Assembly (NCBI GenBank): GCA_009773185.1
Contig: WPIF01000017.1
Span: 1-60,745, forward strand
From: Nitrospirota bacterium
GTDB taxonomy: Bacteria; Nitrospirota; Thermodesulfovibrionia; Thermodesulfovibrionales; UBA1546
Direction: 5' to 3'
Length of the DNA stretch: 60,745 nt
Each line of letters opens with the position of its first letter. The first letter of the stretch is position 1. Below the pieces are notes generated by a model. It did not search any database. It was not told where the DNA came from and saw nothing but the letters and a program-made list of their open reading frames with translations. This document shows positions 1 to 46,355 of this stretch, in pieces. The position numbers and the translations under genes were made by a program.

Positions 1-279
1 TAATCAAATACGTGAAATGGCAGGAAAGCCAGGATTCAGGTCAAGCGAAGCTTGTTCTGTGAAAAAGTGCCACGGGCTTGCCCGTGGGTATCTACATTTG
101 CCTGTAAAATCCCCTGTAAAATCCCTGTGACAATACCGTCATGACAAATTTAAACTTGAGGTGCGTTTTGAGAGTTATTAAAAGTCAATAATCCCTTTTG
201 GGTGATTGACCGACTCAAAAACTTTCTGCTATAGTTCCGTAACTAGTTAATAACTGGTTATGTTTGAAAGGAGATTCTT

Positions 280-693
280 ATGCAAAAATCTTTTGGTATG
301 TTTCTTCTATTATTCATCACTGGTTGTGCGCCTGTAATGCTCACCCCGCAAGGTGTACAGACTGCCGCAATGCGTGCTGATACAGCCCAGGCCCTTCCTG
401 GGCACCCTTTTGATAGTTGTAAAACAATCTCACACCTTGCGACAGAATATACGTATGGCTGCCGCTCAGTAGAAGATTTGGGCGTTGATCTTCGTAACAA
501 AGCAGGTGTATCAGGGGCGAATCTGGTAGTTATTACTAATTTAGTCGATCCTGGACATGCCTGCTATCATCAAGCTGTGGGCATAGCCATTTTTTGCAAT
601 CAGGAAACACTCAAAGCCGCCGGAATCACGCCAGACAATCTAACCCCTGGCATTACGGCAGTTGGACCTATTCAAGGTTTATTCGGGCATTAA
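280..693 (+). CDS. putative lipoprotein, function unknown
   Basis: 137-aa ORF. The N-terminus MQKSFGMFLLLFITGCA looks like a signal peptide with a lipobox Cys. A GGAG RBS lies upstream. No recognisable catalytic motif. Confidence 0.45.
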   Translation: MQKSFGMFLLLFITGCAPVMLTPQGVQTAAMRADTAQALPGHPFDSCKTISHLATEYTYGCRSVEDLGVDLRNKAGVSGANLVVITNLVDPGHACYHQAVGIAIFCNQETLKAAGITPDNLTPGITAVGPIQGLFGH

Positions 694-726
694 GATTCTT
701 TGCTTTTTTCATAAGGAGATACCTCC

Positions 727-948
727 ATGTCAAATATTGTGAAGTTTCCGCATTGGATTAAAAGCATCACAGATACTTTTGATAATGGCATAAAGACTAT
801 CGGAACCGATAGGACATTTCTAAATTGGCTTGACACTAAAAAGGGGGAAGACTTGAATTTCTTAATACTAAGGATGTATCCTGTTGAAGCTAGTAAAAAA
901 GTAAGACAAAGGATAATAAGTATTGGGAAAGAGAGAAAAATTAATTGA
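727..948 (+). CDS. small hypothetical protein
   Basis: 73-aa ORF with a GGAGAT RBS at 714-719. Its 3' end overlaps the hicA-like start. No recognisable domain. Confidence 0.3.
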   Translation: MSNIVKFPHWIKSITDTFDNGIKTIGTDRTFLNWLDTKKGEDLNFLILRMYPVEASKKVRQRIISIGKERKIN

Positions 949-1156
949 TAAGATTAAAACAAATCCCAAACATGTAAGGTTTGAAGATTTGATAAAGGTA
1001 TTAAAAGACGGGGGGTATGATATAATAAATATTAAAGGGAGCCATTATTCTTTTTCTAATGGTGAAACGACTTTAACCATTGTGAGACCACATGGCAGTA
1101 ATAAGTTTTGTCATGTGCATGACGTAAAGGCGGTGATAAGGCTATGCTTACAATAG
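923..1156 (+). CDS. hicA: HicA-family toxin (YcfA-like mRNA interferase)
   Basis: 77 aa. The core '...IKGSHYSFSNGETTLTIVRPHG...' matches the HicA KGSHxxF...G...T.VP.H signature. It overlaps the downstream partner. Confidence 0.7.
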   Translation: MGKREKLIDKIKTNPKHVRFEDLIKVLKDGGYDIINIKGSHYSFSNGETTLTIVRPHGSNKFCHVHDVKAVIRLCLQ

Positions 1157-1368
1157 AAGACTATGAGATAGTAATATTTCCTTCATCAGACAAAGATGAA
1201 CACTGGCTTTATGTGAGATTTCCCGACATCCCTGAAATCCTTACAGGGGGAAGCACTATAGATGAAGCAATCAAGAACGCTAAAGAAGCTTTCGCTTGTC
1301 ACATGGAAGCGCTACAAAAGCAGGGTAAAAAACTGCCCTTGCCTTCAGTCAAAAAGGTCTATGCCTAA
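1144..1368 (+). CDS. hicB: HicB-family antitoxin (UPF0150)
   Basis: 74 aa. 'YEIVIFPSSDKDEHWLYVRFPDIPEILTGGSTIDEAIKNAKEAF' is typical of the HicB/UPF0150 N-terminal domain. It overlaps hicA by 13 nt. Confidence 0.65.
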   Translation: MLTIEDYEIVIFPSSDKDEHWLYVRFPDIPEILTGGSTIDEAIKNAKEAFACHMEALQKQGKKLPLPSVKKVYA

Positions 1369-1576
1369 GACCGGGGTATGGTAAAGGCACACCTTTAAAA
1401 TTCATTTGACAAAAAAGCCACTCAGTAGTCTATATCCATAACATCTCTTGCACTTACTGCGGAAAAGAAAATTTTGTCACCACCTCTTTCTGCACAACCT
1501 GCTGGCAGAGGTTGAAGTGAGCGGGTTCGATTTCTTGGATTTAAGTCGCAATATTTCACACCTTTTTCCCTTCTGC

Positions 1577-1606
1577 TTGACAACCCGCAAACTAAAATTA
1601 TACAAT
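1577..1606 (+). promoter_or_regulatory. sigma70-type promoter (TTGACA-18 nt-TACAAT) for the Ehr-type operon
   Basis: TTGACA at 1577-1582, an 18-nt spacer, then TACAAT at 1601-1606, about 40 nt upstream of the 1647 ATG. Confidence 0.5.
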
Positions 1607-1646
1607 CAAGACCAATTTTGGACAAAACTGGACAAAAAAGGACAAG

Positions 1647-2339
1647 ATGAACCTTCGTGTTAAGGATGTTGCCGGTCTGCTGAGCATATCACAGAAGACC
1701 ATATACAGGATGATAAAGAATGAGACTATCCCGTGTTTCAGGGTTGGCGGCCAGTGGCGTTTCGACAGGGGCGAGATTGTTTCATGGATAGAAGATACAA
1801 GGGATATCCCATTCCATGCATCAACAAGGAAATCTTCTTTTGTTGATGAAGAGTCAATATCCGTATCGGAATTCCTCAGGCGTGGGGGCATTTACTATAA
1901 TGTCGCTGCTAATACTAAAGAAGATGCCATATCATTTTGCCTTGCTCTCATCAAGGAAGAAGTTCCTCAAATGGATATAAGAAGGCTGTTTAGCGCCATC
2001 ATGGAAAGGGAGAAGTTATGTTCCACTGCTGTCGGGCACGGAACCGCATTCCCTCACCCGATGCCCTTCAAAGAGTTTGCATCAAGGTTTTCTTCCATTG
2101 CGCTTTGTTATCTTGACAAACCCATACCTTTTGGCGCCCTGGACAATGAGGATGTTAATACGCTTTTTTTTATATTTCCAAGAAATGAGAGGCGTTATTT
2201 GAGGATACTCGCCAAGCTCTCAAGGCTATTGAAGGATGAAGAGGTCATAGCTGCCGTGAAAAACTTCTCTCCTGCGGATAATCTCTATGAGGTCTTTGCG
2301 CGCAGGGAGACCGAGATATTCAGGGTGGCAGAAAAGTGA
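1647..2339 (+). CDS. HTH (MerR/excisionase-type) DNA-binding domain fused to a PTS EIIA-2-like domain, putative regulator
   Basis: N-terminal 'LRVKDVAGLLSISQKTIYRMIKNETIPCFRVGGQWRFDRGEIVSWIE' is an excisionase-family HTH. C-terminal 'AVGHGTAFPHP' is a PTS_EIIA_2 phospho-His region. Its stop overlaps the next start (GTGA). Confidence 0.6.
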   Translation: MNLRVKDVAGLLSISQKTIYRMIKNETIPCFRVGGQWRFDRGEIVSWIEDTRDIPFHASTRKSSFVDEESISVSEFLRRGGIYYNVAANTKEDAISFCLALIKEEVPQMDIRRLFSAIMEREKLCSTAVGHGTAFPHPMPFKEFASRFSSIALCYLDKPIPFGALDNEDVNTLFFIFPRNERRYLRILAKLSRLLKDEEVIAAVKNFSPADNLYEVFARRETEIFRVAEK

Positions 2340-4381
2340 TTTTATCGCCTATAGATATTGCATTGTCTTCAATTCTTCTGCTTTTCCTTATCGCGGTATT
2401 GGCTTTTTTATTTAACCGCTACCAGAAATTTTTAATTACTATCAGTTTTTCCATGACAACAATAGCTTCACTCCTTATGGTTGCGGCCGGAGGCTGGACT
2501 GTTGGGAAAGGCATTACCAATCAGATTATCCTGCCCATAGGCCTTCCTGACCTTCTGTTTCATCTCAGGCTGGACCCGTTGTCAGGTTTTTTTCTTACGG
2601 TAATCGGCCTGCTGGCTTTTTTTGTATCCATTTATTCTCTCGGATATGTAAAAGGATTTTTGGGACAGAGGTCAGTAACAAGCCTTATTATATTTTATTG
2701 CCTGTTTATTGCCGGGATGTTTATGGTGGTTCTTGCGGACGACGCCTTGTTTTTCCTTATCTCGTGGGAAGTGATGGCTGCAGCTTCATATTTTCTGGTT
2801 ATGTTTGAGGATGAAAAAATTGAAAACAGAAGGGCGGCCTTTCTTTATATGATAGTCGCCCATGTCGGAGCTATTGCAATACTTCTGTCGTTCGGTGTTA
2901 TGGCGGGTCTTACAACCGGCTTTCAAGGTTTTAGCGGATATACATTTGATGCAATGCGTGCGACAAGATTTCCCCTGGGATGGGCAACTGCTGCTTTTCT
3001 GCTTTCATTTTTCGGTTTTGCTGCAAAGGCCGGGGTAATCCCTTTGCATGTCTGGCTGCCCGAGGCGCATCCTGTTGCCCCGTCAAATGTATCTGCCTTG
3101 ATGAGCGGTGTAATGCTGAAGACCGCAATATACGGGATAGTCAGGATAACTTTTGACCTTATTAAGGTCTTTCCATGGTGGTGGGGAGCTATAGTTTTGG
3201 TATTCGGGCTGGTGTCTGCTGTCCTGGGCGTTCTTTATGCCTTAATGCAGCATGACTTAAAAAGGCTTCTTGCGTATCACTCTGTAGAGAATATAGGCAT
3301 AATACTTATAGGCATCGGGCTTGCAATGATATTCACATCTTTTCAGATGCCATTGTTGGCTGCCCTGGCCCTTACAGCAGGACTTTTTCATACCATGAAC
3401 CACGCCATGTTCAAAGGGCTTCTCTTTATGGGTGCAGGCGCTGTGCTTCATGCAACGCATGAACGTAATATGGAAGAGATGGGCGGCCTTATCCACAAGA
3501 TGCCATGGACTGCTGCTTTTTTTCTTGTCGGCTGTATTTCCATTTCGGCCTTGCCTCCATTTAACGGGTTTATATCAGAGTGGCTAACTTTCCAGGCTTT
3601 TTTACTTTCGCCGTCTTTACCAAACCCGTTGCTGAACCTGCTGATCCCTATGGGAGCAGCGCTTCTCGCGCTGACAGGCGCTCTGGCTGCTGCCTGTTTT
3701 GTAAAGGCATTCGGTGTAACATTTTTAGGCCACTGGCGCGGCCATCATAACCCTAATATCCATGAGGCAGACTGGCCCATGCGTACAGGGATGATGTTTG
3801 CTGCCTTAACATGCCTTGGCCTTGGAGTTTTGCCAACCCTGTTTATTGAGTGGATGGACGTGATATCCGAACAGCTGGTAGGCGCCAAGATTGCAACCTC
3901 AGCAACAGGACTCGGTTGGATGTGGCTTACCCCGATTGCGCACGAAAGGGCCTCTTACTCAGGCCCGATAGTTTTCCTGTTCATAATGGCAGTTGTGGTT
4001 CTGGCTTATATCTTTCTGCATGTGCGTCCTGCTGCCATACAAAGGGTGCCGATATGGGACTGCGGGTTTGAAAAGATAAATCAGAGGATGCAATATAATG
4101 CCACATCTTTTTCAATGCCGATACGCAGGATATTCGGTTTTTTCTTCAGCATAAAAGAACAAGTGAGGATGGGTTCCCATTATGGACATAAGGCCTTTCC
4201 AAAAAAGTTGCATTATCACCTCAGAATAAGAGACCTTTTCTGGGGCTGGCTGTATAAGCCTGTAATCGAAGTGAGTTTCTGGGTATCGCGGAAGGTCGGC
4301 AAGCTCCAGCAGGGACGAATACAGGTTTACCTTATATATTCTTTTGTGACTATCATTGTACTTCTGGTATTTCAGGGATGA
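2336..4381 (+). CDS. HyfB-like proton-conducting membrane subunit (NuoL/MnhA family antiporter module)
   Basis: 681 aa (E. coli HyfB is 672 aa), polytopic. Has the 'WLPEAHPVAPSNVSALMSG' motif typical of NuoL/M/N. Confidence 0.8.
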   Translation: MILSPIDIALSSILLLFLIAVLAFLFNRYQKFLITISFSMTTIASLLMVAAGGWTVGKGITNQIILPIGLPDLLFHLRLDPLSGFFLTVIGLLAFFVSIYSLGYVKGFLGQRSVTSLIIFYCLFIAGMFMVVLADDALFFLISWEVMAAASYFLVMFEDEKIENRRAAFLYMIVAHVGAIAILLSFGVMAGLTTGFQGFSGYTFDAMRATRFPLGWATAAFLLSFFGFAAKAGVIPLHVWLPEAHPVAPSNVSALMSGVMLKTAIYGIVRITFDLIKVFPWWWGAIVLVFGLVSAVLGVLYALMQHDLKRLLAYHSVENIGIILIGIGLAMIFTSFQMPLLAALALTAGLFHTMNHAMFKGLLFMGAGAVLHATHERNMEEMGGLIHKMPWTAAFFLVGCISISALPPFNGFISEWLTFQAFLLSPSLPNPLLNLLIPMGAALLALTGALAAACFVKAFGVTFLGHWRGHHNPNIHEADWPMRTGMMFAALTCLGLGVLPTLFIEWMDVISEQLVGAKIATSATGLGWMWLTPIAHERASYSGPIVFLFIMAVVVLAYIFLHVRPAAIQRVPIWDCGFEKINQRMQYNATSFSMPIRRIFGFFFSIKEQVRMGSHYGHKAFPKKLHYHLRIRDLFWGWLYKPVIEVSFWVSRKVGKLQQGRIQVYLIYSFVTIIVLLVFQG

Positions 4382-5322
4382 TATTGTATCCATTCATAAT
4401 AGAGATTTTGCAGCTGCTGATTATCCTTGCGCTAGCGCCTGTATTTGCGGGGTGGATAAAGATGCTGAAGTGCTGGTCGCAGGGGCGTACATCTCCGGGG
4501 CTTTTTCAGCCTTACAGGGACATCATAAAGCTTTTTTCAAAAGATGTGGTGATTGCCGGGAACGCATCATGGATATTCCGTTTTACCCCGTATCTTGTCT
4601 TTGGAGTTGCTGTTCTTGCAGGAGGAATCGTGCCTATGCTGTCTGTGGACCTGCCTCTGGCTGCTACAGCAGACGTAATTGCATTAGTGGCGCTCTTTGC
4701 AATAGCAAGATTTTTTACTGCTTTGGCCGGAATGGATATCGGTACGGCATTTGGAGGCATGGGGTCAAGCCGTGAGATGACAATCGCATCCCTGGCTGAA
4801 CCTGCAATGCTTATGGCTATATTCACCGTATCTCTGGCAAGCAAGTCTACATCGCTTTCAGAGATGGTTCAGGTAATTTACAGCGGGCTGTCTGTTTTCA
4901 GGCCGTCCCTTGCATTCGCCTTGCTTGCGTTTATCCTTATTACCCTTGCCGAGACCGGAAGGATACCTGTGGATAATCCGGCAACGCATCTTGAGCTTAC
5001 AATGATACATGAGGCGATGATACTGGAATATTCAGGAAGGCATCTGGCCCTCCTTGAATGGGCGGGTATGATGAAACTATTCCTTTTTGTGATGCTGGGG
5101 GTAGCTGTTTTTGCGCCGTGGGGCATTGAAGCATCCGGTGATTTTGCAGCAATACCGGCAGCGTTTCTTTTTATGATATTGAAGCTTGCGGCAGCAGGAG
5201 CCGGACTTGTATTGATAGAAACAGGCCTGGCAAAGATGCGGCTGTTCCGTTTAACTGAATTCCTCGGGTCTGCCTTTTTACTGGCAACCCTTGGAATGTT
5301 ATCTTATTTTATTCTGGAGTGA
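4378..5322 (+). CDS. HyfC/HycD-like membrane subunit (NuoH family)
   Basis: 314 aa (HyfC is 315 aa), multi-TM. Follows hyfB with a 4-nt overlap. Confidence 0.75.
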   Translation: MILYPFIIEILQLLIILALAPVFAGWIKMLKCWSQGRTSPGLFQPYRDIIKLFSKDVVIAGNASWIFRFTPYLVFGVAVLAGGIVPMLSVDLPLAATADVIALVALFAIARFFTALAGMDIGTAFGGMGSSREMTIASLAEPAMLMAIFTVSLASKSTSLSEMVQVIYSGLSVFRPSLAFALLAFILITLAETGRIPVDNPATHLELTMIHEAMILEYSGRHLALLEWAGMMKLFLFVMLGVAVFAPWGIEASGDFAAIPAAFLFMILKLAAAGAGLVLIETGLAKMRLFRLTEFLGSAFLLATLGMLSYFILE

Positions 5323-5323
5323 A

Positions 5324-5989
5324 ATGCATACGAACCTGGCAGCGCAGATAAACAGTTTTCTTGCAGCAATGGTACTCCTGACAGCATTTGGCATGCTGGT
5401 GCAGAGAAGGATGTACGGGCTTATACACCTGTTTGCATGGCAGGGGCTTTTTCTTTCCATAAGCACCGCCATAGTCGGTTTTGTTGCCGGAGCGCATCAT
5501 CTTTATATATCTTCCATACTGACACTGTCTTTGAAAGTTATTCTTCTTCCGTATATCCTGCATGTCCTTATCCAGCGGCTGAAAATACACAAAGAGGTGG
5601 AAACTATTGTAAATGTACCCATGACAATGCTGATAGGCATAGCCCTTGTTATTTTCTCGTACCACCTGACCGCGCCTGTCAGGGAGCTGTCAACACTTAT
5701 GACCCGCTCAACCCTTGCCGTTGCCCTTGCCACTGTTATGCTCGGGCTTTTAATGATGATTACAAGGAAACATGCTGTTACTCAGATAATAGGGTTTCTT
5801 GCTATGGAGAACGGACTTTTTTTTGCAGCTACAAGCGCAACTTACGGTATGCCGCTTGTAGTAGAGCTTGGCGTTGCGCTTGACATACTCATTGCCGCAT
5901 TCATATTCGGCATATTCTTTTTCCATATTCACAAAACATTTGACAGCCTTGACGTGGACCAGATGGCAAGATTGAAGGAAGGGGATTAG
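5324..5989 (+). CDS. HyfE-like small membrane subunit
   Basis: About 221 aa from ATG 5324 (the longer ORF from 5291 overlaps the upstream gene). Polytopic, same size class as HyfE (216 aa), in the hyf-like gene order. Confidence 0.5.
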   Translation: MHTNLAAQINSFLAAMVLLTAFGMLVQRRMYGLIHLFAWQGLFLSISTAIVGFVAGAHHLYISSILTLSLKVILLPYILHVLIQRLKIHKEVETIVNVPMTMLIGIALVIFSYHLTAPVRELSTLMTRSTLAVALATVMLGLLMMITRKHAVTQIIGFLAMENGLFFAATSATYGMPLVVELGVALDILIAAFIFGIFFFHIHKTFDSLDVDQMARLKEGD

Positions 5990-5991
5990 AG

Positions 5992-7440
5992 ATGCCGCTT
6001 TTGATTCTATTGAGCGTGCCATTGTTTGCAGCAATTGTCCTTGCCTTTATCGGTGACAGGAAATATGCGCCTGAAATAAATATCCTGGGTTCTGCTGCCA
6101 CGTTTGCAGCAGGGATAAGCCTTGCATTAGAGGTCTATGCGGAAGGGCCGATGCTTGCAGGAGGAAAGTTTTTCTTTGTTGATGCCTTCAATGTTTATCT
6201 GGCTGTTTTAACCTCATTTGTATCTATGACCACTGCTATTTTCAGCAGGAGATATATGCGAAAGGAAAGGCAGGACGGCCATGTGGGGCCTATCCGCATG
6301 CGCTTTTACCATGCTATGTTCCAGCTTTTTATATTTGCGATGCTTCTCTGTCTTCTTACGAACAATGTCGGTGTCCTGTGGATAGCAATGGAACTGGCTA
6401 CACTGTCTACGGTGTTGCTGGTTTCCCTATACCGCACGCCATCGGCAATCGAAGCTGCCTGGAAGTATTTTATACTCTGCGGCGTTGGAATTGCACTGGC
6501 GCTTTTTGGAACAGTGCTCCTTTACTTTGCAGCAGAAAAAGTGCTGGGTGCAGGAGGCGAGGCCTTGCTCTGGACCAATCTCAGTCAGGTAAGCGGTAAA
6601 CTTGAGCCGACAGTTCTGTCTCTGGCATTCGTATTTCTGATGGTGGGTTACGGTACAAAAGTAGGGCTTGTCCCTGTACACAACTGGCTTCCTGACGCGC
6701 ACAGCGAAGGGCCGACGCCTATCTCGGCTGTACTTTCAGGATTGCTGTTAAATGTTGCACTCTATGCTCTGGTAAGATGCAAGGTGCTTGTGGACGGTTC
6801 TACCGGAACGCATCACGCAGGCGACATAATGATGGGGTTCGGCCTGCTTTCGATTATAGTGGCTGCTTTTTCACTACTGAGGCAGAAGGATATAAAGCGC
6901 ATGTTTGCGTATTCATCAATAGAACACATGGGCATAGCAACCTTTGCCTTTGGCCTTGGCGGCCCCATAGCCACCTTCGGCGCTCTGCTTCATATGCTCG
7001 TACACAGCCTTACCAAGTCGTCCATATTCTTCACAGTAGGCCATGCCTCACAGATGCACTGGACGCAGGAGATGGACAGGATAAAGGGGCTTATTAAGGG
7101 AAACCCTCTGGTAGGGTGGGGGCTTATGTTCGGGGTAATGGCTATTGTCGGTATGCCGCCCTTCGGCGTTTTTACAAGCGAATTTTTGATACTGACCGCA
7201 ACAATGAAGGATGCGCCTTTCTTAACGCCTTTTTTGCTGTTGGGTTTTGCAGTAGCATTTGCAGCATTGTTCAGAAGGGTACAGCCTATGGTTACCGGCC
7301 CTGTGCCTTCGTACCAGCGGCCTCTTAAGGCTGCACATATACCGGTAATGCTGCATATGGCGCTGGTCCTTGTTATCGGAATTTATATGCCTGATTTTCT
7401 TAATCGGTGGTTTCATACAGCGGTGGAGTTGCTGAAATGA
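5992..7440 (+). CDS. HyfF/HyfD-like antiporter-type membrane subunit (NuoM/N family)
   Basis: 482 aa. Has the 'WLPDAHSEGPTPISAVLSG' NuoM/N signature and many TM helices. Confidence 0.75.
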   Translation: MPLLILLSVPLFAAIVLAFIGDRKYAPEINILGSAATFAAGISLALEVYAEGPMLAGGKFFFVDAFNVYLAVLTSFVSMTTAIFSRRYMRKERQDGHVGPIRMRFYHAMFQLFIFAMLLCLLTNNVGVLWIAMELATLSTVLLVSLYRTPSAIEAAWKYFILCGVGIALALFGTVLLYFAAEKVLGAGGEALLWTNLSQVSGKLEPTVLSLAFVFLMVGYGTKVGLVPVHNWLPDAHSEGPTPISAVLSGLLLNVALYALVRCKVLVDGSTGTHHAGDIMMGFGLLSIIVAAFSLLRQKDIKRMFAYSSIEHMGIATFAFGLGGPIATFGALLHMLVHSLTKSSIFFTVGHASQMHWTQEMDRIKGLIKGNPLVGWGLMFGVMAIVGMPPFGVFTSEFLILTATMKDAPFLTPFLLLGFAVAFAALFRRVQPMVTGPVPSYQRPLKAAHIPVMLHMALVLVIGIYMPDFLNRWFHTAVELLK

Positions 7441-9020
7441 GTGTATTGACTGATGCAATAACATCGGCGCTTGGGACTGATATTCAGTTTGACAAAAGGC
7501 AATACCCGTCTTCGGTAATCTGCTGTACTGTGCCGGTAGAAAAGTTTGCAGAAGCTGCCTGGGTATTGAAAAAGAAGGCATTTGCACTTCTTGCTGCTGA
7601 ATGGGCCAGTGATGAGACACCTTTCGGAAGGGGATTCTGTGTCTTTGCCTGCTACCGTTGGGGCAAGGAATACCTGATCGTAAGGTCAGAGTTGCCATCA
7701 GATAATCCTCAGTTCCCAAGCCTTACAAGGAGATATATTCCTGCCTACAGGTTTGAGAGGCAGATACAAAGCCTCATGGGCATTACGCCTGCCGGTCATC
7801 CTGACGCAAGGCCGTGGATAAAATTTGAAGACTGGCCTGCAGGTGCCTGGCCGCTCAGAAAATCCTTTGATGCATCAAAACCCCTGCCGAGGGTTGCGGG
7901 TGAATATGAATGGATTAAGGCAGAGGGCGAAGGAGTCTATGAGATACCGGTGGGGCCTGTTCATGCAGGCATTATCGAGCCGGGCCATTTCCGTTTTCAG
8001 GCAGTTGGCGAGGATATAATTAATCTTGAAGAAAGGCTTGGGTATGTTCATAAAGGTATAGAGAAAAAATTTGAAGCTCTGTCGTGGCAGGACGGAGCAA
8101 GGCTTGCAGGCAGGGTGTCCGGCGATACAACAGTTGCCCACGCTATTGCATATTGCATGGCGCTGGAGACGATGACAGACTGCAATGTGCCTGAGAGGGC
8201 CAATTGGCTCCGTGCAATTTTTCTTGAAAGGGAGCGCATAGCAAACCATCTGGGGGACATAGGAGCTATCTGTAATGATGCTGCATTTGCATTTATGCTT
8301 TACCAGATGTCAAGGCTCAGGGAAATTGTACTTCGCACCAACCATAAACTTTTTGGCCACAGATTTATGATGGATAAGGTTATTCCCGGAGGAGCGGCTG
8401 TTGACATTGATTCAGAAGGTAAAAAAGAAATATTATCAGAACTTGACAGCATATCAAAAGATTTTGAGAAGCTTGTTATTATATACGATGAAAGTCCGTC
8501 TCTTGAAGACAGGGTCAGGGATACAGGTATTCTCCGTCCTGAGTTAGCACGGGAACTCTGTGTTGTCGGAATAGCTGCAAGGGCAAGCGGCCTGAACCTC
8601 GACTGCCGCATATTCAATCCTTTTCCGCCTTATGACCAGTATGACCTCATTGAGCTGGGTGTGCCTGTTCTTATTACCGGCGATGTGCATGCAAGGACAT
8701 GGGTCAGGATCCAGGAGGTAAGGGAATCCATCCGGATTATCCGGTATATGCTTGAAAATCTTCCAGATGGAGAGATAACTTCTTCTTTTACTCCACCGTC
8801 TCCGGACATGTCTGGTTTTGCAGCAGTTGAAGGCTGGCGGGGAGAGATTATTTACTGGCTCCAGGCAGGGCCGAAAGGCGAGATAAACAGGTGCATGGTC
8901 AGGGACCCGTCCAGCGTTAACTGGCTTGGGCTTGAGCAGGCAATACCCGGGAATATAGTTCCTGATTTTCCTTTATGCAATAAAAGTTTTAATCAGTCTT
9001 ATTCAGGGCATGACCTATGA
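7437..9020 (+). CDS. HycE/HyfG-like 'large subunit' (NuoC-like N-domain + NuoD/[NiFe]-LSU-like domain) lacking all four Ni-Fe cysteine ligands
   Basis: Has 'GPVHAGIIEPGHFRF' and 'GYVHKGIEK' signatures. At the N-terminal motif position it reads RVSGDTTVAH instead of R-x-C-G-x-C-x3-H. The C-terminus reads NQSYSGHD instead of DPC-x2-C-x2-H/R. The ATG at 7437 overlaps the upstream stop (ATGA). Confidence 0.8.
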   Translation: MSVLTDAITSALGTDIQFDKRQYPSSVICCTVPVEKFAEAAWVLKKKAFALLAAEWASDETPFGRGFCVFACYRWGKEYLIVRSELPSDNPQFPSLTRRYIPAYRFERQIQSLMGITPAGHPDARPWIKFEDWPAGAWPLRKSFDASKPLPRVAGEYEWIKAEGEGVYEIPVGPVHAGIIEPGHFRFQAVGEDIINLEERLGYVHKGIEKKFEALSWQDGARLAGRVSGDTTVAHAIAYCMALETMTDCNVPERANWLRAIFLERERIANHLGDIGAICNDAAFAFMLYQMSRLREIVLRTNHKLFGHRFMMDKVIPGGAAVDIDSEGKKEILSELDSISKDFEKLVIIYDESPSLEDRVRDTGILRPELARELCVVGIAARASGLNLDCRIFNPFPPYDQYDLIELGVPVLITGDVHARTWVRIQEVRESIRIIRYMLENLPDGEITSSFTPPSPDMSGFAAVEGWRGEIIYWLQAGPKGEINRCMVRDPSSVNWLGLEQAIPGNIVPDFPLCNKSFNQSYSGHDL

Positions 9021-9523
9021 TAAGGATATTAAAGCAGATATTCCGGACAGGCATTGTAACAGAGCCTCTGCCAACTGAAATTATTTCTGAGGTGGAAGAG
9101 GTTGGCGCCAAATTAGAAGAGGCTGTCAGAAAGCGTTTTCGCGGGAGCCTGACCATAAGGCAGGTTGATGCAGGCTCGTGCAACGGCTGTGAGCTTGAAA
9201 TACATGCGATAAACAACCCGATTTATAACTGCGAAAGATTCGGTGTCCATTTTACTGCATCTCCAAGATTTGCCGATATGCTGCTGGTTACAGGGCCTGT
9301 GACACATAATATGGAGATTGCGCTTCGCAGGACTTATAATGCCACGCCTCCCCCGAAGATTGTGGTTGCAGTTGGTGACTGCGGATGCAATGGCGGGATA
9401 TTTGGAGAGAGCTATGCATCTTTGGGAGGTATAGATAAGGTCATACCGGTTAACGCTGTTATTCACGGATGCCCGCCGACTCCTGTGGCCTTGCTTCAGG
9501 GGATATTAAAAGCCATTGAATAA
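9017..9523 (+). CDS. HycG/HyfI/NuoB-like small subunit with 4-Cys [4Fe-4S] site retained
   Basis: 168 aa. Contains 'GSCNGCELE', 'GDCGCNGG' and 'HGCPPTP', the four Cys of an N2-type cluster. ATGA overlap with the large subunit. Confidence 0.8.
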   Translation: MIRILKQIFRTGIVTEPLPTEIISEVEEVGAKLEEAVRKRFRGSLTIRQVDAGSCNGCELEIHAINNPIYNCERFGVHFTASPRFADMLLVTGPVTHNMEIALRRTYNATPPPKIVVAVGDCGCNGGIFGESYASLGGIDKVIPVNAVIHGCPPTPVALLQGILKAIE

Positions 9524-10706
9524 TAAAAGCAGCATTGAAATGCAGAAGGTTCATCTAAAGAGGACAAAGAGGATTCTTGACGGGCATTTGTGGGTGTTCT
9601 CGAATGAGCTGTATGAAAACCCAAAGAAATATGACCCCGGTTCTATAATCGAGATTTATGATATGAAAGATGTGTTTCTTGGCATCGGTTACATCAACCC
9701 CCACAGCCTTATCTCAATAAGAATCCTGTCCAGAGAAAAAGAGAGTATTGACAGGGAATTTTTCAGAAAAAGAATAAATGCAGCATTGAGCCTGAGAGAA
9801 CGGTTTATCGGAACAAGGGATGCCATGCGCCTGATTTTCAGCGAAGGAGATTATCTTCCAGGCCTTATTGTGGATAAATACAAAGACTGTCTTGTCTTGC
9901 AGATTCTTACTTTGGGGATGGAGGCTTTGAAGGGCACAGTAATCAGCCTGCTTGATGAGATGCTCAGTCCGGAAATAATAATATTAAAAAACGACAGCCG
10001 TATGCGCTCCCTCGAAGGAATCCCGCTCTACAAAGAAATTATAAAAGGCAGCCTTCAGTCTCCTCCTGTTATAAATGAGGATGGGGCGCGCTTTGAGATA
10101 GACCCTTATGAAGGGCAGAAGACAGGGTTCTTTCTTGACCAGAGAGGAAACAGGACAGCGCTGAGGGATTTCATAAAGGGCGGTAAAGGGCTTGACCTTT
10201 TCTGCTATACAGGTGCATGGTCCTTAAGGCTTGCTTCATTAGTTGATGAGGTTACAGGGGTTGATGAATCGGAAAGGGCCATAACACAGGCTCAGAAAAA
10301 TGCAGAGTTAAACAGCTTTCATAATAGAGTTAGATTTATAAAATCTGATGTTTTTTCTTTTCTCAAAGATGAAATTGGAAAAGGCGAGAAGAGGTATGAT
10401 TTTATTGTGCTTGACCCGCCTGCTTTTGTAAAAAGCTCAAGCAAAATTAAAGAGGCAGTAAAGGCATACCGGCAGCTTAATGAAATGAGCATGAGGCTGA
10501 TAAAATCAGGCGGCATACTTGCAACCTCGTCATGTTCCTATCACATGGGCAGGGAGATGTTTCTTGATATGCTTCATTCCGCAGGGCGAGGGGCAGGGCG
10601 TAATCTGAGGCTTCTCAGTCTGCGTTCACAGAACCATGACCACCCGGTGCTTCTTTCAATGCCGGAGACTGAATATCTGAAGTGTGCGTTTTTGGTTGTG
10701 GATTGA
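9516..10706 (+). CDS. class I SAM-dependent rRNA methyltransferase (RlmI/RlmK-like, PUA + MTase)
   Basis: 396 aa. 'GLDLFCYTGAWSL' is a SAM-binding motif and 'DFIVLDPPAF' is motif IV. N-terminal PUA-like region. Confidence 0.7.
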   Translation: MNNKSSIEMQKVHLKRTKRILDGHLWVFSNELYENPKKYDPGSIIEIYDMKDVFLGIGYINPHSLISIRILSREKESIDREFFRKRINAALSLRERFIGTRDAMRLIFSEGDYLPGLIVDKYKDCLVLQILTLGMEALKGTVISLLDEMLSPEIIILKNDSRMRSLEGIPLYKEIIKGSLQSPPVINEDGARFEIDPYEGQKTGFFLDQRGNRTALRDFIKGGKGLDLFCYTGAWSLRLASLVDEVTGVDESERAITQAQKNAELNSFHNRVRFIKSDVFSFLKDEIGKGEKRYDFIVLDPPAFVKSSSKIKEAVKAYRQLNEMSMRLIKSGGILATSSCSYHMGREMFLDMLHSAGRGAGRNLRLLSLRSQNHDHPVLLSMPETEYLKCAFLVVD

Positions 10707-10718
10707 GAAAGTGCTATA

Positions 10719-10754
10719 TTGACTTTATCACTTAAATGATATAATAATGATATA
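10719..10754 (+). promoter_or_regulatory. candidate promoter with extended -10 plus AATGATATA direct repeats (possible Phd/ParE autoregulatory operator)
   Basis: TTGACT at 10719-24, a 15-nt spacer, then TGaTATAAT at 10737-45. AATGATATA occurs twice (10735-43, 10746-54), upstream of the phd-like gene. Confidence 0.35.
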
Positions 10755-10771
10755 GCAAAGAGGGGGGTACA

Positions 10772-11044
10772 ATGCCGGTTATAAAGCCAATATCTGATTT
10801 AAGAAACAAGGCAAACGAAATCTCAGAACTCGCACACAAATCTAGCGAGCCTATTTTTATCACCAAAAACGGCGAAGGTGATATGGTTGTCATGTCAATA
10901 GCTCAATACAGCAAGCTTCAGTTAAGAATTGACCTCTTCAGCAAGCTTGCAGTTGCTCAGGCCCAAAAGGCATCCGGTGATAAGGGGCGGACTCTAAGTC
11001 AGGTGATGAAAGACCTGAGGAAGAGACTTCGTGAAACAACATAG
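10772..11044 (+). CDS. Phd/YefM-family antitoxin
   Basis: 90 aa. 'ISDLRNKANEISELAHKSSEPIFITKNGEGDMVVMS' matches the Phd/YefM fold signature. Confidence 0.7.
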   Translation: MPVIKPISDLRNKANEISELAHKSSEPIFITKNGEGDMVVMSIAQYSKLQLRIDLFSKLAVAQAQKASGDKGRTLSQVMKDLRKRLRETT

Positions 11045-11339
11045 ATACGCTGTTCGGCTGTTAGAAATTGCAGAAGACGACCTTAACGAAATTGTGACCT
11101 ATATCGCCGCAGAAAATTTTACTGCCGCAGAAGCTCTTGCCGCAAAGATTGAAAAGAACCTGTCACATCTTTCTGTTCATCCCTTTATCGGGCGTGTCCC
11201 TGAGGAAGAGGAACTTACCAGATTAGGGTACCGCTACCTGATTGTCCAGGATTATCTTATCTTTTATACGATTGAAGGACAGACAATTCTTATTCACAGA
11301 ATTATCCATGGAGCAAGAGACTATTTGAGATTGCTTTAA
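11031..11339 (+). CDS. ParE/RelE-family toxin
   Basis: 102 aa. 'LIFYTIEGQTILIHRIIHGARDY' is a typical ParE/RelE C-terminus. It overlaps the antitoxin gene by 14 nt. Confidence 0.7.
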   Translation: MKQHRYAVRLLEIAEDDLNEIVTYIAAENFTAAEALAAKIEKNLSHLSVHPFIGRVPEEEELTRLGYRYLIVQDYLIFYTIEGQTILIHRIIHGARDYLRLL

Positions 11340-11379
11340 AACATCAAAGTGGAAGACCTGACTTGGAATACTCTTTCAA

Positions 11380-12021
11380 TTATCGTTGAATATGAGGCCT
11401 TAATTTTTTCTCGAATTCAGCAATTGCTGCATTAATTCGTGGCGTAAACTTATCATGTTCTGAATCGTTGCCCAAGTAATTAAGAACTGATGTTTCTTTT
11501 TGCCTTTCTTCTTCAGTTATTCGCGAAAACTCTTCCGGATGTTTTTTCCTCTCAAGCTTCATCTGTAGTGTTACCATCAGTTCTGCACGACACTCCCTTA
11601 GAGGTCGAATTACATTTTCAAATTCTGGCCCCCACTCAACTTGAGCTTCCAGCGTCTTTTCTTCAAGATCGTTGAATGCTTCACTCAAGATTTTCCATCT
11701 CTGCTCATAAACATGCGCCGTCCCCTCGTATTCAGTTCCCCTTTTTAAGTGACCCCAGTGATCACGCATTTCTTCAGGATATTCATAAGACCAAATTGCT
11801 GGATTCCTAACATGTTTGAACCCTTCTCTAACTTTATATACAGCCTTTAAGACGTCTTTTGCTTTTTCATATTCAGATTTACCTTTTAGCTCTTTACGCC
11901 ATGTGCTTAACCCCAAATAGGCAAATATCGCTGCCGATAGAGCTGCGAGTGCAACAATGATTTCTTTTATAATGCCCACGTAATCCTTCACAGCAGGCCA
12001 ATTTATCACATTGTTATCCAT
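11380..12021 (-). CDS. hypothetical membrane-anchored protein
   Basis: 213 aa with a single N-terminal TM (IIVALAALSAAIFAYLGL) and a charged, helical remainder. No recognisable domain. Shares an upstream motif with the flotillin gene. Confidence 0.4.
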   Translation of the reverse strand: MDNNVINWPAVKDYVGIIKEIIVALAALSAAIFAYLGLSTWRKELKGKSEYEKAKDVLKAVYKVREGFKHVRNPAIWSYEYPEEMRDHWGHLKRGTEYEGTAHVYEQRWKILSEAFNDLEEKTLEAQVEWGPEFENVIRPLRECRAELMVTLQMKLERKKHPEEFSRITEEERQKETSVLNYLGNDSEHDKFTPRINAAIAEFEKKLRPHIQR

Positions 12022-12148
12022 CGCATTATAAATCTTCCTTTATTCTGTCTATATGTAAGTTTACTGGATTCATGCGACAATATAGTACAAAAAGGCGTAT
12101 CTCCTTGCCAGATAAGTTCAGCCACTCACGCGGCATTGTTTATCTATA

Positions 12149-14173
12149 CTATGCCTTTTTTTCTTCCTTGATGCCCAATATTCCCCCTTTGTTCGAAAGA
12201 AACTTCATCAGTGTCGCCGCAAGGCCGTCCATGGAACCATTTCCGCCTGCAACAAGGATCTCTGGCATGATCTTTTTGTCGCCCTTCATGACCGCATCTA
12301 TTGCGTTCACGAGTGTTGTCCCTTGCTCGCCGACGGCTTTCCTGAGCTCTTCAGCAGCCTTGGCGCGGGCTAAACCAACCGCCTCTATCTCTGCGCCTTT
12401 TGCTTTGCCGGTTTCAGTCACATAGGATGAGTCGCCACGGCCCTCCGCCTCTCTCTTGTACTGGTAGGCCTCGGCTTGGATCTTGACCTGCTGGGCCTCA
12501 TTCCTTTTGATGTCTACGTTGACAGATGATTTTGCAAGCTCGGCCTGCATGTCTGCAGTGCCTTTTGCCTTTTCAGTAGAAATTCTCTGCTGCTGGGCCT
12601 CTTCCTTTTTCTTGTAGGTCTGTATCTCCTGATTTGCAATTTCTCTTTGGGTAAGAACCTGCACAAGCTCTTCAGGGAGGACGACATCCTGAATGTATAC
12701 GCCCCTTGTCTCAACATTATAATCCTTAAGTTTAGCTTCGATATATTCGGTAGCTGCGGACTGTATCTCGTCTCTCTTTTCAATGAAGGAAATTGCAGGC
12801 ATCGACTGAAGCTTATTCCGGAAGTGGTTACCGACAGCCGCCTGCAGAACCTCGTTGACAAGGTTTCTTACTGAACCTACCATTGAGATGACCTTGGATG
12901 CCTGAGTATCAGGAATATGTATTTGTACCTGCAGATCGATTTTGAAAACAAAACCTTCCCGCGATTTTGCGACAATCTGCTTAAGATTTTGATCAAGGTT
13001 ATGCGCTTGTGACGATGCTTCTGCCCAGTTCAGATTCAGGATTGCAGTGGGAACGATTTCAGCCTTGTAGCAATGAGAATTAAGTGGATACTTCCCTGTT
13101 CTGAGGGCCTCTCTCCATATACCCCTGTGTCCGGGTCTTACGATCGAGCCAAATTTGAATTCTTCTCCTGAGGTATCCTGCGATGGCAAGCCGACATATG
13201 ATTTAATGACCGCAACCTGTCCCTGCTCGATGACGAGCATTGGCGCGATCTCGACATTTACAAGAAACGGATTCAGATTGTACATACCGTAGAGCAAAGG
13301 ATCATGCTGAAGCCCGATTCTTCCGCCATTGTCGATAAAGGCCTGAAAGTCCTGATAGTTATTATGGACAGTGTTCTTGTTCGCAAGAATCGTTTCCATA
13401 AGTAATAGGTCGGAAGTCGCTTGAGCGCTTTCAAGTCTCGAAATGTCTTCAAAGCCGCCCAGTCTGCTTGCAATGTCACCTGCGGATAGCGGGTCGCCGT
13501 CGTTCACAGTTACAATGCCAACTACATCGATTGATTTGTTATCCTCATCAAGTCTCGGCTCTATGAGGACAACCTTGAGCTGTTCAGCTTTGAGCCCAAA
13601 GGCGTCCGGCGTGAGTTCATTACCCCTCTTGCCCCCCAGTTCCCTTATCTCGGGAGCTACAGGTATGCCGTAGACCTGTGCTTTAGTGATAACGAGAAAC
13701 CCGACGGGATGAATCGGCAGCAGTGAACCCGGAGGGAGAACAGGCCTCTGTACACCCTTCTGCCCGCCTTTTTCGATGAACTCCTTTACGCGCGAGAAAT
13801 TCGCAAACTCTTTTTTGTATACGGCCGATTTGGCGCCTATAGGCAGGGGATGGCCCACCTGAGCAATTACAATGCCGATTTCACCTGCGGGGACCTGCAC
13901 CCACGGATGTTTTTCAATGAGGTAAAGAGGCCATAGCTTGAACCTCAGCCCCGGCATCAGAAGTTCCTCCTGGTAGCCGGCTTCGCCATTAAAAGCGATC
14001 GGGTTATCATCAGACAGCTTCGAGATAGAAAAGCGCTTATTCACCAGACCGATTTCCGTAGGTCCGATGCTCTTAAAAGACTTATAGACCATTAAAGTTA
14101 CCGTTCCTATGAATCCCAGAACGACCAGAGTGAGTACCGGATGGTGAATTAAAAGAAAATTAAGTATGTCCAT
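12149..14173 (-). CDS. flotillin-like SPFH/band-7 protein (YqiK/FloT family)
   Basis: 674 aa. N-terminal TM, an SPFH core, and a C-terminal EA/Q-rich coiled coil ('EAQQQRISTEKAKG...AEAYQYKREAEGRG'). Confidence 0.75.
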   Translation of the reverse strand: MDILNFLLIHHPVLTLVVLGFIGTVTLMVYKSFKSIGPTEIGLVNKRFSISKLSDDNPIAFNGEAGYQEELLMPGLRFKLWPLYLIEKHPWVQVPAGEIGIVIAQVGHPLPIGAKSAVYKKEFANFSRVKEFIEKGGQKGVQRPVLPPGSLLPIHPVGFLVITKAQVYGIPVAPEIRELGGKRGNELTPDAFGLKAEQLKVVLIEPRLDEDNKSIDVVGIVTVNDGDPLSAGDIASRLGGFEDISRLESAQATSDLLLMETILANKNTVHNNYQDFQAFIDNGGRIGLQHDPLLYGMYNLNPFLVNVEIAPMLVIEQGQVAVIKSYVGLPSQDTSGEEFKFGSIVRPGHRGIWREALRTGKYPLNSHCYKAEIVPTAILNLNWAEASSQAHNLDQNLKQIVAKSREGFVFKIDLQVQIHIPDTQASKVISMVGSVRNLVNEVLQAAVGNHFRNKLQSMPAISFIEKRDEIQSAATEYIEAKLKDYNVETRGVYIQDVVLPEELVQVLTQREIANQEIQTYKKKEEAQQQRISTEKAKGTADMQAELAKSSVNVDIKRNEAQQVKIQAEAYQYKREAEGRGDSSYVTETGKAKGAEIEAVGLARAKAAEELRKAVGEQGTTLVNAIDAVMKGDKKIMPEILVAGGNGSMDGLAATLMKFLSNKGGILGIKEEKKA

Positions 14174-16377: not shown

Positions 16378-16722
16378 ATGCATGAGGCTTCAATTGCTCA
16401 AAGCGTGCTTGACATTGCCGGTGAGAACTGCAAAAAAGCAGGCTATAGCAGAATAGATTCGATACGGCTGAGAATAGGGAGGGCATCGGGTGTTATGACC
16501 GATGCCCTCCTTTTTGCCTTTGATGCACTTAAGGCAGATACTATTGCAGCAGGTGCAACCGTTATAATAGATGAGATTCCGGTAGGCGGTTTATGCAACA
16601 GCTGCGGCAAGGATTTTCTTACAGACGAGGCATATATCTTATGCTGTCCGGAATGCGGCGGGTTATCGTTTAAGGTGAATACAGGGCGTGAACTTGAAAT
16701 TCTGGATATGGAGGTGTCTTGA
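16378..16722 (+). CDS. hypA: hydrogenase nickel-insertion protein HypA
   Basis: 114 aa. N-terminal MHE, and a Zn site C-x2-C...C-x2-C ('CNSCGKDF...CCPECGG'). Confidence 0.85.
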   Translation: MHEASIAQSVLDIAGENCKKAGYSRIDSIRLRIGRASGVMTDALLFAFDALKADTIAAGATVIIDEIPVGGLCNSCGKDFLTDEAYILCCPECGGLSFKVNTGRELEILDMEVS

Positions 16723-16736
16723 TGAACAATTATGAT

Positions 16737-16858
16737 GCAGGATATAGCATCCTCGCTCATTCTCGGTCTTCGACCTCCGAGGTTTTGCCCGCTTTTATTA
16801 TTAGAAATTTTACTGTATGAATTGCAGGCAAAAAAACCGCTCAAATGCCATATCCTGC
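16737..16858. repeat. MITE-like repeat element copy (GCAGGATAT...ATATCCTGC termini)
   Basis: Shares 'CGCTCATTCTCGG..TCCGAGGTTTTGCC...GGCAAAAAAACCGCTCAAA' with copies at 27021, 31996, 33340 and 48511. Has terminal inverted repeats. Confidence 0.5.
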
Positions 16859-16896
16859 ATTTCATTTATAACTATAGTGATAGGGAGGGTTAATTT

Positions 16897-40316: not shown

Positions 40317-40421
40317 AAGGCAACAGAAGCCCGCTGAACTCAGGTTTGGCTGTATATGGGAAACCTCTTGCGTAAGTGTTATAGTAAAGATATTATTAAC
40401 ATTCAGGCAAAAGGAGCAATC

Positions 40422-41885: not shown

Positions 41886-41937
41886 AAATGCGAAGATTAG
41901 AGGAAGAAGGGCGATAGGTTTTTATGAGAGGTGGGTT

Positions 41938-43422: not shown

Positions 43423-43427
43423 AACAA

Positions 43428-46334: not shown

Positions 46335-46355
46335 AGTGCGGAAGAGATTATTTGG

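Follow-up and report, generated by a model that had tools for sequence, protein, structure and literature searches.

A 60.7-kb stretch of DNA (60,745 nt; contig WPIF01000017.1 of the Nitrospirota bacterium assembly GCA_009773185.1), referred to here as the window, encodes at 2336-9523 a six-subunit membrane complex composed of HyfB-, HycD/HyfC-, HyfE- and HyfF-like membrane subunits together with a large and a small subunit, designated here EhrB, EhrC, EhrE, EhrF, EhrL and EhrS, respectively. All four cysteine ligands of the [NiFe] site are replaced in EhrL, and the complex is almost certainly a functional member of the Ehr/Hyq family (Ehr, energy-converting-hydrogenase-related) that lacks NiFe. 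In our reading, to which we give a probability of roughly 55%, it couples ion translocation to a redox reaction that does not involve H2, between partners that we infer; a pairing of ferredoxin with quinone in particular is proposed only tentatively. The complex truly belongs to a family that has been on record since 2005-2013 and is known from thousands of homologues, and it does not define a new class. Ehr/Hyq complexes are nonetheless among the most widespread relatives of complex I without an assigned reaction, and their hosts include sulfate-reducing Nitrospirota, Geobacter, nitrifiers, iron and sulfur oxidisers, methanotrophs and rhizobia. The role of such a six-subunit machine with a single cluster would reveal the minimal needs of redox-driven ion pumping and might explain the supply of low-potential electrons in some aerobes.

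EhrL (7437-9020, + strand, 527 aa) is a fused NuoC::NuoD/HycE-like protein in which Pfam recognises PF00329 (Complex1_30kDa) and PF00346 (Complex1_49kDa). ATG at 7437 is preferred as its start over a possible GTG at 7407 because it overlaps the stop codon of the HyfF-like gene and fits the lengths of homologues. Its best match among all chains of the PDB, searched with phmmer, is E. coli HycE (7z0s_E, E=4e-66). The ligand columns were read from phmmer alignments with PDB chains and from an alignment made with MAFFT, in which E. coli HyfG and two relatives that have the Cys were included, and both place the ligand residues in identical columns. Around the N-terminal pair of ligands (L1), RVSGDTTVAH (8112-8141, + strand) is paired with RVCGICGFAH of HycE, and around the C-terminal pair (L2) NQSYSG is paired with DPCYSC; extended to the stop codon, NQSYSGHDL (8991-9020, + strand) aligns with DPCYSCTDR of HyfG. 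The two Cys of L1 are thus replaced by Ser228 and Thr231, with a family-conserved Asp230 between them, and those of L2 by Ser521 and Gly524. EhrL ends at HDL, where HyfG runs on for another 32 residues, presumably the peptide that is cleaved off large subunits of the HycE type during maturation; as predicted from its gene, EhrL is made without a C-terminal maturation peptide.

The 120 nearest database relatives, 74-92% identical and originating from Nitrospirota/Thermodesulfovibrionia metagenomes and from Dissulfurispira thermophila, all end in SY[SA]GxD[LV], and 116 of them carry the RxSGD motif. Since this pattern is kept in 120 of 120 relatives, the loss of the ligands is neither an assembly artefact nor a sequencing error. 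Family alignments, like the analyses of gene context below, were built from the best 80 of at least 595 candidate loci found when one genome of each GTDB species was scanned; both scan patterns are shared with Cys-containing sister hydrogenases, so that this number of loci is an upper bound for the Cys-less family. In the alignment of large subunits, S228 is kept in 68, G229 in all and D230 in 70 of 71 members, N519 in 67 and S521 in 69, and Y522, G524 and D526 are each invariant (71/71), giving the family-wide replacement motif R-x-S-G-D-[ST]…N-x-S-Y-[SA]-G-x-D-L. The best-conserved Cys of EhrL is kept in only 47 of 71 members, and no family-wide thiolate metal site is therefore hidden elsewhere in the protein. 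An AlphaFold2 model of EhrL based on 72 family sequences (mean predicted local distance difference test score, pLDDT, 94.2; predicted template modelling (TM) score, pTM, 0.94) matches HycE best (7z0s_E, TM-score 0.94, root-mean-square deviation 2.1 Å) and then E. coli NuoCD (TM-score 0.90). Its confidence is low only at the β1-β2 loop (pLDDT falls to 56 and 79 in the two blocks of 10 residues that span 171-190, and below 50 at 174-176). To judge from this conservation, the former active site was remodelled and not simply given up, and its replacement motif is under purifying selection, as the complex as a whole clearly is too. The near-invariant Asp between the two lost N-terminal Cys and the family-wide extent of the motif are modestly new.

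A search of 1.84 billion cluster representatives with EhrL returned 1140 proteins at E≤1e-30, and outside its own 50% cluster the relatives are at most 49% identical. About 82 of the 118 near-full-length top representatives at 50% identity are Cys-less and carry R-[IV]-S-G-D-[ST]…N-K-S-F-N-L-S-Y-[SA]-G-x-D-L-end, and 21 of the 118 are four-Cys hydrogenases with E-R-x-C-G-x-C…N-K-S-F-E-L-C-Y-x-C-x-D-R; the nearest representative from outside the Nitrospirota (P0121) sits on a 2-kb contig, too short to tell anything of its gene context. In a rough neighbour-joining tree the SGD sequences form one large clade, sister to the Cys-containing "NKSFELCYxC" group-4 hydrogenases, and another, smaller group of Cys-less sequences, which lack the Asp, falls elsewhere in the tree, as far as a distance method alone can place it. 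EhrL is far nearer to HycE than to Nqo4 of complex I (E=2e-39) and has none of the complex-I quinone residues; together with the sister placement in the tree, this makes EhrL look like a derived offshoot of Hyf-type hydrogenases. The view of the initial annotation, that such complexes are evolutionary intermediates between hydrogenases and complex I, is not borne out by these distances or by the fold.

The best 80 loci come from Nitrospirota, Beta-, Gamma- and Alphaproteobacteria, Acidobacteriaceae, Chloroflexia and one metagenome-assembled genome (MAG) labelled as Saccharibacteria (L043), the proteobacterial carriers including Thiobacillus, Gallionella, Mariprofundus, Methylococcales, Bradyrhizobium, Mesorhizobium, Rhizobium and Paraburkholderia. 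By tblastn, the order B-C-E-F-L-S is found in essentially every locus that is long enough, with the small subunit moved to the front in three. Some genomes carry tandem double modules (L006, L041 and L054). In L006, a Nitrospirota MAG (MFD09567) with modules at 125-4494 and 4684-12221, the large subunit of the upstream, divergent copy is 40% identical and Cys-less, with SGT in place of SGD; in L054, the second copy terminates in NKSFDLSYCGNDL.

The small subunit has kept its iron-sulphur site. EhrS (9017-9523, + strand, 168 aa) is a NuoB/HycG/MbhJ-like protein (Pfam Oxidored_q6, 4e-29) in which C55, C58, C122 and C152, encoded by the codons at 9179, 9188, 9380 and 9470, are in register with the cluster Cys of HycG (9e-38) and MbhJ (5e-35), and each of the four is kept in at least 41 of 42 family members. 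The motif is of the hydrogenase type, SCNGCE with CxxC spacing. Around this subunit the usual electron relay is missing: no open reading frame (ORF) of the operon encodes a 2x[4Fe-4S] subunit of the NuoI/HycF/HyfH type, no CxxCxxCxxxC ferredoxin motif occurs in the six frames of the whole window, and no NiFe large subunit, formate dehydrogenase, NuoEF-like gene or nif gene was found within it. ORFs were called in the 80 loci with their 10-kb flanks, compared all against all by BLASTP and clustered, several apparent clusters being discarded as antisense ORFs of high-GC genomes. No conserved electron-input or redox partner recurs in these flanks, and no gene for a formate dehydrogenase, NuoEF, HycB/HycF or an MbsN-like protein recurs within 10 kb of the 80 loci or in the close relatives; the six core genes alone recur, and the other repeats are a small helix-turn-helix (HTH) gene (12 loci), SulP transporters (3) and NtrC-type regulators (5). 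Judged by gene content, the six-gene module is self-contained and travels alone, which is again a modestly new point.

SulP-family anion transporter genes stand directly upstream of the HyfB-like gene in Methylothermaceae, Betaproteobacteria and Methylococcales MAGs (L014, L019 and L048, respectively), all three being chemolithotroph or methanotroph loci, with two such genes in tandem in L048, the SulP label being read from translations and not from a domain search. An NtrC-type sigma-54 response regulator follows the operon in L015 and L017.

The membrane arm retains the residues expected of an ion-translocating machine. EhrB (2336-4381, + strand, 681 aa) is an antiporter-type, HyfB-like subunit that scores 829 bits against the NCBIfam model "hydrogenase 4 subunit B" (cut-off 667) and has HycC as its best solved relative (7z0s_C, 3e-70); E145, K231, K262, H352, H356, K360 and E415 are conserved family-wide. 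EhrF (5992-7440, + strand, 482 aa), the second antiporter-type subunit, scores 776 bits against NCBIfam HyfF (cut-off 543), and its best solved match is MbsH of Pyrococcus MBS (8e-39). Its conserved residues are E134, K223, H334, H338, K342 and E397, among which E134, K223 and E397 align with E144, K234 and E407 of NuoM. The Lys of transmembrane helix 8 (NuoM K265) corresponds to a conserved Asn254 in EhrF (53/56), whereas EhrB keeps the Lys (50/51). EhrE (5324-5989, + strand, 221 aa) has a NuoK-like C-terminal half with conserved K71, E162 and E181; it reaches 104 bits against NCBIfam HyfE, below the cut-off of 136, matches Pfam Oxidored_q2 at 9e-6, and has no sequence match to any solved structure in the PDB. 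EhrC (4378-5322, + strand, 314 aa) is the HyfC-HycD-NuoH-like membrane anchor (Pfam NADHdh, 3.9e-37), much closer to HycD (7z0s_D, 2e-43) than to ND1 of complex I (~1e-7), and 65 of its positions, many of which hold acidic or basic residues, reach a conservation of 95% or more. As far as alignments can tell, both antiporter-like subunits retain their Glu/Lys/His chain family-wide, and EhrC its NuoH-like charges.

Ehr complexes are defined as group-4-like complexes without NiFe CxxC motifs and with unknown function (PMC6349859, PMC10284858, PMC7304191) and are thought to couple cytoplasmic redox reactions with charge translocation (PMC6349859, PMC10284858). The class of Marreiros et al. (2013) is taken here as it is quoted in PMC6349859, PMC10284858 and PMC4758237. 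On these terms the window complex belongs to it: the large subunit is homologous to the group-4 [NiFe]-hydrogenase large subunit and NuoD, the N- and C-terminal CxxC motifs are absent from it, and NuoB-like, NuoH-like and Mrp/NuoL-M-N-like subunits are encoded beside it. The initial annotation had already applied the Ehr label, and the observations behind it have stood up, namely the Hyf-type gene order and sizes (now supported by Pfam and NCBIfam calls and by the annotated 672 aa of hyfB and 315 aa of hyfC in E. coli K-12), the replacement of the four NiFe ligands by S, T, S and G, the retention of the four cluster Cys in the small subunit, and the lack of a HycF/HyfH/NuoI-type subunit and of an input module in the window. 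It missed, however, that the operon is orthologous to hyqRBCEFGI of Azorhizobium caulinodans (Ng 2009, PMC2650096; Sprecher 2012, PMC3357923).

In A. caulinodans, HyqG is a 504-aa NuoC::D fusion, the HyqG proteins of eight genera are without both CxxC motifs, and the N2-type cluster of HyqI is assigned to Cys 55, 58, 112 and 152 (PMC3357923). The six structural genes follow the order B-C-E-F-G-I in Hyq, in the window and in the alphaproteobacterial loci L036, L064, L066 and L077; a regulator gene comes first in the operon; and Cys-55, Cys-58 and Cys-152 of HyqI bear the same numbers in EhrS, the third ligand being 112 in HyqI and 122 in EhrS. The large subunits of the alphaproteobacterial loci are 46-50% identical to EhrL and carry Cys 13 and 7 residues from the C-terminus, which correspond to Cys-491 and Cys-497 of Hyq. 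Because Cys positions and synteny agree, the window complex is, at the level of sequence, the Nitrospirota orthologue of Hyq, and this explicit link of Ehr in anaerobes to the genetics of Hyq in rhizobia is modestly new. The two systems also differ. The regulator is a small HTH protein acting with a NifA/sigma-54 promoter in Azorhizobium but an HTH_17 protein with an EIIA domain here, and the window has no nif context, its host being probably an anaerobe (the closest relatives are labelled Thermodesulfovibrionales/Thermodesulfovibrionia). Two of the three Cys conserved in Hyq are present in EhrL (C279 and C514), position 520 being Gln. Cys occurs at the three positions in 47, 44 and 22 of 71 sequences, so that these residues are a clade feature. 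H2 uptake and evolution phenotypes of the operon have been reported in A. caulinodans mutants only (PMC3357923).

Another relative is the Ehr system of Geobacter sulfurreducens (GSU0739-0745; Coppi 2005), which likewise has a large subunit without NiFe Cys and small, HyfE-like and NuoL-like subunits, all of them expressed and raised or most abundant on formate (PMC7894505); its NuoL-like gene is split according to the annotation (EhrA-1), and orthology is judged here by subunit names and composition. The closest solved relatives of four subunits are those of E. coli formate hydrogenlyase (FHL), HycC (3e-70), HycD (2e-43), HycE (4e-66) and HycG (9e-38), and the gene order B, C, E, F, G, I is shared with Hyf. 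Unlike FHL and Hyf, however, the window complex has no NiFe Cys, HyfA/HycB, HyfH/HycF, HyfD, HyfJ, FdhF or maturation peptide, and EhrS is without the C-terminal extension of HycG (168 aa versus 255/252 aa). The marks of a group-4 [NiFe] hydrogenase, which are the ligands in L1 (RxCGxCxxxH) and L2 (DPCxxCxxH/R) and a 2x[4Fe-4S] relay subunit, are thus absent. With complex I it shares the modular core of an L-shaped enzyme, the [4Fe-4S] cluster at the N2 position, the lack of NiFe, a fused NuoCD as in E. coli and the Glu/Lys chain. It has no NuoI, NuoEFG, NuoA or NuoJ, the similarity is much lower than to hydrogenase subunits, the tandem-Cys (CCxxE) ligation of N2 is absent from EhrS, and in a phmmer alignment with 2fug_4 the positions of Tyr87 and His38 of T. 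thermophilus Nqo4 are taken in EhrL by Gly229 and Ile, the alignment of the β1-β2 loop being uncertain. The membrane-bound sulfane reductase MBS/Mbx of Pyrococcus (PDB 6U8Y) is likewise a hydrogenase-derived complex that has lost H2 chemistry, but its large subunit matches EhrL only weakly (6u8y_L, 7e-21). MBS is archaeal and has a NuoI-like subunit, a full Mrp module of many small subunits and two of the four Cys, whereas the window complex consists of six proteins only and has no Cys at the ligand positions.

As a redox-coupled ion translocator, the complex might work as follows. The [4Fe-4S] cluster of EhrS would be its only redox centre, and a soluble low-potential one-electron carrier (ferredoxin or flavodoxin) would dock directly at the face that is normally covered by NuoI or HycF. 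The electrons would pass out of the complex, or into it, through a remodelled polar pocket (S228-G229-D230 / S521-Y522-G524-D526) where EhrL, EhrS and EhrC meet; the second partner there would most plausibly be a membrane quinone, probably menaquinone in this host. Redox-linked changes of protonation at the pocket could then drive H+ or Na+ through EhrC-EhrE-EhrF-EhrB, and the reaction would be reversible, so that an ion gradient could push electrons uphill to ferredoxin. Expression would probably be controlled by the co-transcribed HTH-EIIA regulator through phosphorylation of its His137 in response to a signal of the nitrogen-related phosphotransferase (PTS-Ntr) type. Coupling to quinone was inferred for Hyq by Sprecher et al. 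(PMC3357923); with this precedent and with quinones in most of the listed hosts, quinone is the most economical guess for the partner.

Several observations weigh against this proposal. No member of the family has a demonstrated donor or acceptor. The quinone ligands of complex I are missing, Gly229 standing at the position of Tyr87 and no His at that of His38, the CxxC of EhrS is hydrogenase-type and not the tandem CC of complex I, and EhrC resembles the quinone-independent HycD much more than NuoH. Moreover, Ehr has been reported in lineages without recognisable quinone biosynthesis, Riflemargulisbacteria (PMC6349859) and members of the candidate phyla radiation (PMC7304191), and therefore quinone cannot be a universal partner; the Saccharibacteria-labelled MAG among the best 80 loci also counts on this side. 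Finally, the genetics of Azorhizobium attribute both uptake and evolution of H2 to the orthologous operon (PMC3357923).

The last point leads to an alternative that we consider unlikely, in which the complex is a cryptic "endo-hydrogenase", a reversible H2:quinone oxidoreductase working through a non-canonical site in EhrL/HyqG or through the iron-sulphur cluster itself. The Δhyq mutant of A. caulinodans grows more slowly under diazotrophic conditions and the operon depends on NifA (PMC2650096). A ΔhupSL strain evolves H2 at a very high rate under microaerobic conditions, and hyq is needed for about 80% of this evolution, which persists in a nifK mutant (PMC3357923); the alphaproteobacterial loci retrieved here are orthologues of this very operon. 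These data come from whole cells only, however, 20% of the H2 is left in the double mutant, an indirect flow of electrons to another source of H2 is possible, and the authors themselves called a NiFe site in Hyq "uncertain, if not unlikely" (PMC3357923). The initial annotation had named dependence of H2 production or uptake on this operon as contrary evidence, and for the orthologous hyq operon such dependence has been reported, in whole cells only. In the large subunit, the four ligands have given way to residues such as Ser, Asp and Gly, and no Cys is conserved family-wide. To our knowledge, no H2-activating site works without a thiolate-bound metal. An indirect effect of hyq on H2, for example through an exchange of electrons between quinones and carriers of low potential from which a different enzyme makes H2, is therefore more likely than a Cys-less hydrogenase, and what the comparison exposes is a contradiction in the literature between a Cys-less HyqG and H2 fluxes that depend on hyq.

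The maturation genes hypA, hypB, hypF, hypD and hypE, which lie 7-16 kb downstream of the operon in the window, might also seem to favour a cryptic hydrogenase. The first four are contiguous (16378-20986); between them and hypE (25018-26040) come some 4 kb of unrelated genes that run on the opposite strand and encode a metallophosphoesterase, a pentapeptide-repeat protein and an unknown product. Beside hypD, no hypC of 60 aa or longer was found. As the window has no NiFe structural gene, the hydrogenase that they serve must lie elsewhere in the genome. Furthermore, no hyp genes were found near the operon in the close relatives L002, L085, L086 and L087, and the proximity of hyp and ehr is therefore treated as a coincidence.

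Ion transport may also be thought of without catalysis, the complex being a Mrp-like cation/proton antiporter for ion homeostasis whose iron-sulphur cluster is a redox sensor or a structural element and whose regulation follows PTS-Ntr, as K+ transport does in E. coli. The full charge chains in both antiporter-like subunits would suit such a device, as would the lack of an electron-input module in the window and in the flanks of the 80 loci, the dedicated regulator with its PtsN-like EIIA domain and invariant phospho-His, and a Kup K+ transporter gene directly downstream of the operon in L087. The Kup neighbour is a single case, however, and the regulator is restricted to Nitrospirota. In addition, Mrp antiporters work without NuoB/D/H modules, and across phyla few positions of the whole complex are as conserved as the NuoH-like E-channel residues, the four cluster Cys and the pocket motif, which is hard to explain by a sensor alone; the idea is thus improbable. 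Somewhat less so, but still doubtful, is an adaptor that docks a dehydrogenase encoded elsewhere, such as a formate dehydrogenase with NuoEF-like subunits, or a complex that reduces a soluble sulfur compound in the manner of MBS. Yu et al. in 2020 are said to have shown with MBS that loss of the NiFe ligands can go with a change of substrate. The case of MBS fits poorly here, because MBS keeps a NuoI-like subunit and two Cys, both of which the window complex lacks, and because the Ehr/Hyq family is present in aerobes, where reduction of sulfane is unlikely. For a formate dehydrogenase there are the FDH-Ehr complex proposed in Margulisbacteria and Saganbacteria (PMC6349859) and the abundance of the Geobacter subunits on formate (PMC7894505), but none of the genes expected of such a partner recurs beside the operon in the 80 loci or in the close relatives. 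That the operon is merely a decaying relic of a hydrogenase, as the lost ligands alone might suggest, has hardly any probability left: the ORFs are intact with overlapping start and stop codons, thousands of homologues keep strongly conserved motifs across phyla, the Geobacter proteins have been detected (PMC7894505) and the Azorhizobium mutant has a phenotype (PMC2650096), and conservation effectively refutes it.

One may further ask whether the S-G-D / S-Y-x-G-x-D pocket is a new catalytic or coupling site, either for turnover of H2 without Cys-ligated NiFe, which the genetics of hyq in Azorhizobium would imply, or for coupling a single [4Fe-4S] cluster to ion translocation with ferredoxin as the direct partner. 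Such novelty is quite unlikely; in its ferredoxin variant, the complex would be a minimal, ion-gradient-powered "ferredoxin charger" of diazotrophs and chemolithoautotrophs.

Seven genes on the + strand (1647-9523) are packed in a single run, with overlaps of 4 nt between the regulator gene and ehrB, ehrB and ehrC, ehrF and ehrL, and ehrL and ehrS, and with spacings of 1 nt between ehrC and ehrE and 2 nt between ehrE and ehrF. No terminator-like sites are predicted between the genes of the operon. A candidate sigma-70-like promoter (TTGACA-18-TACAAT; 1577-1606, + strand) lies 40 nt upstream of the regulator gene and, with 11 of 12 positions, is the best consensus match in 1000-11500, a call made by consensus match alone. 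A sigma-54 promoter was looked for by eye in 1400-1650, and the TGGCA…TTGA stretch there was rejected as wrongly spaced. Scans with Rfam and for tRNA genes gave no riboswitch or leader near the operon, the only hit being a distant tRNA-Pro.

The regulator gene (1647-2339, + strand) encodes an N-terminal HTH_17 domain of the MerR/excisionase type (PF12728, 2.4e-14) and a C-terminal EIIA-2 domain similar to PtsN (PTS_EIIA_2, PF00359, 2e-24), which retains the phospho-acceptor motif G-x-A-x-P-H137, its His137 being unchanged throughout 13 homologues. An HTH_17-EIIA gene also precedes the operon in L009 and L085. When metagenomes were searched with the regulator instead of the complex, the loci with 2 kb or more of sequence downstream of the regulator numbered eight, and every one carried a B-C-E-F… operon there; in four of the eight, which belong to a divergent lineage of the operon (B only 43% identical), a Nudix-like gene separates B from the regulator. 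In proteobacteria, an HTH gene of about 90 aa takes the leader position instead (12 loci). As far as these loci go, HTH-EIIA is a recurrent, dedicated partner that is restricted to Nitrospirota, a modestly new observation. In the divergent Nitrospirota lineage (L095/L102, L096 and L098) the Nudix-like gene is about 250 codons long (6754-7509 in L095/L102), and a phosphoenolpyruvate-carboxykinase-like gene is found upstream, on the other strand, the names of the two being read from translations rather than from a domain search.

According to the initial annotation, the operon is co-transcribed with this regulator and with an RlmI-like methyltransferase; of these two neighbours, only the regulator recurs beside the operon. 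The RlmI-like gene (23S rRNA m5C methyltransferase, PUA_3 + Methyltrans_SAM; 9540-10706, + strand, 9540 being the most likely start) begins 16 nt after ehrS, with no terminator predicted in the gap, but stands beside the operon in this contig only and in none of about 95 related loci, and because of this absence it is regarded as an incidental neighbour outside the system. Other neighbours vary as well: cysS and a SpoU methylase precede the operon in D. thermophila, and MotAB, an Asp-tRNA ligase or the Kup transporter adjoins it in other Nitrospirota. In the window, genes of toxin-antitoxin type flank the operon, a HicB-like antitoxin upstream (1144-1368) and a Phd/YefM antitoxin and a ParE toxin downstream (10772-11044 and 11031-11339), all identified by Pfam, and they fit an operon in a variable neighbourhood.

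Elsewhere in the window, an unusually long SPFH/Band-7 protein (12149-14173, - strand, 674 aa) has a coiled-coil-like C-terminal tail rich in Lys, Glu and Ala, and its gene is adjoined by MgtC-family and MntP genes. On the + strand, 40356-47667 and 53782-58407 contain six paralogous genes whose products have a caspase domain (Peptidase_C14), joined in three of the products by ankyrin repeats at the N-terminus. All six match the PADLOC "caspase" model, and the ankyrin parts match PDC-M72A. Interspersed with them are genes for a DUF6036 nucleotidyltransferase, a DUF3368 protein (PADLOC candidate PDC-S70, 1e-28) and a DUF4384 protein, and from these domain matches the cluster may be a defence or abortive-infection island.

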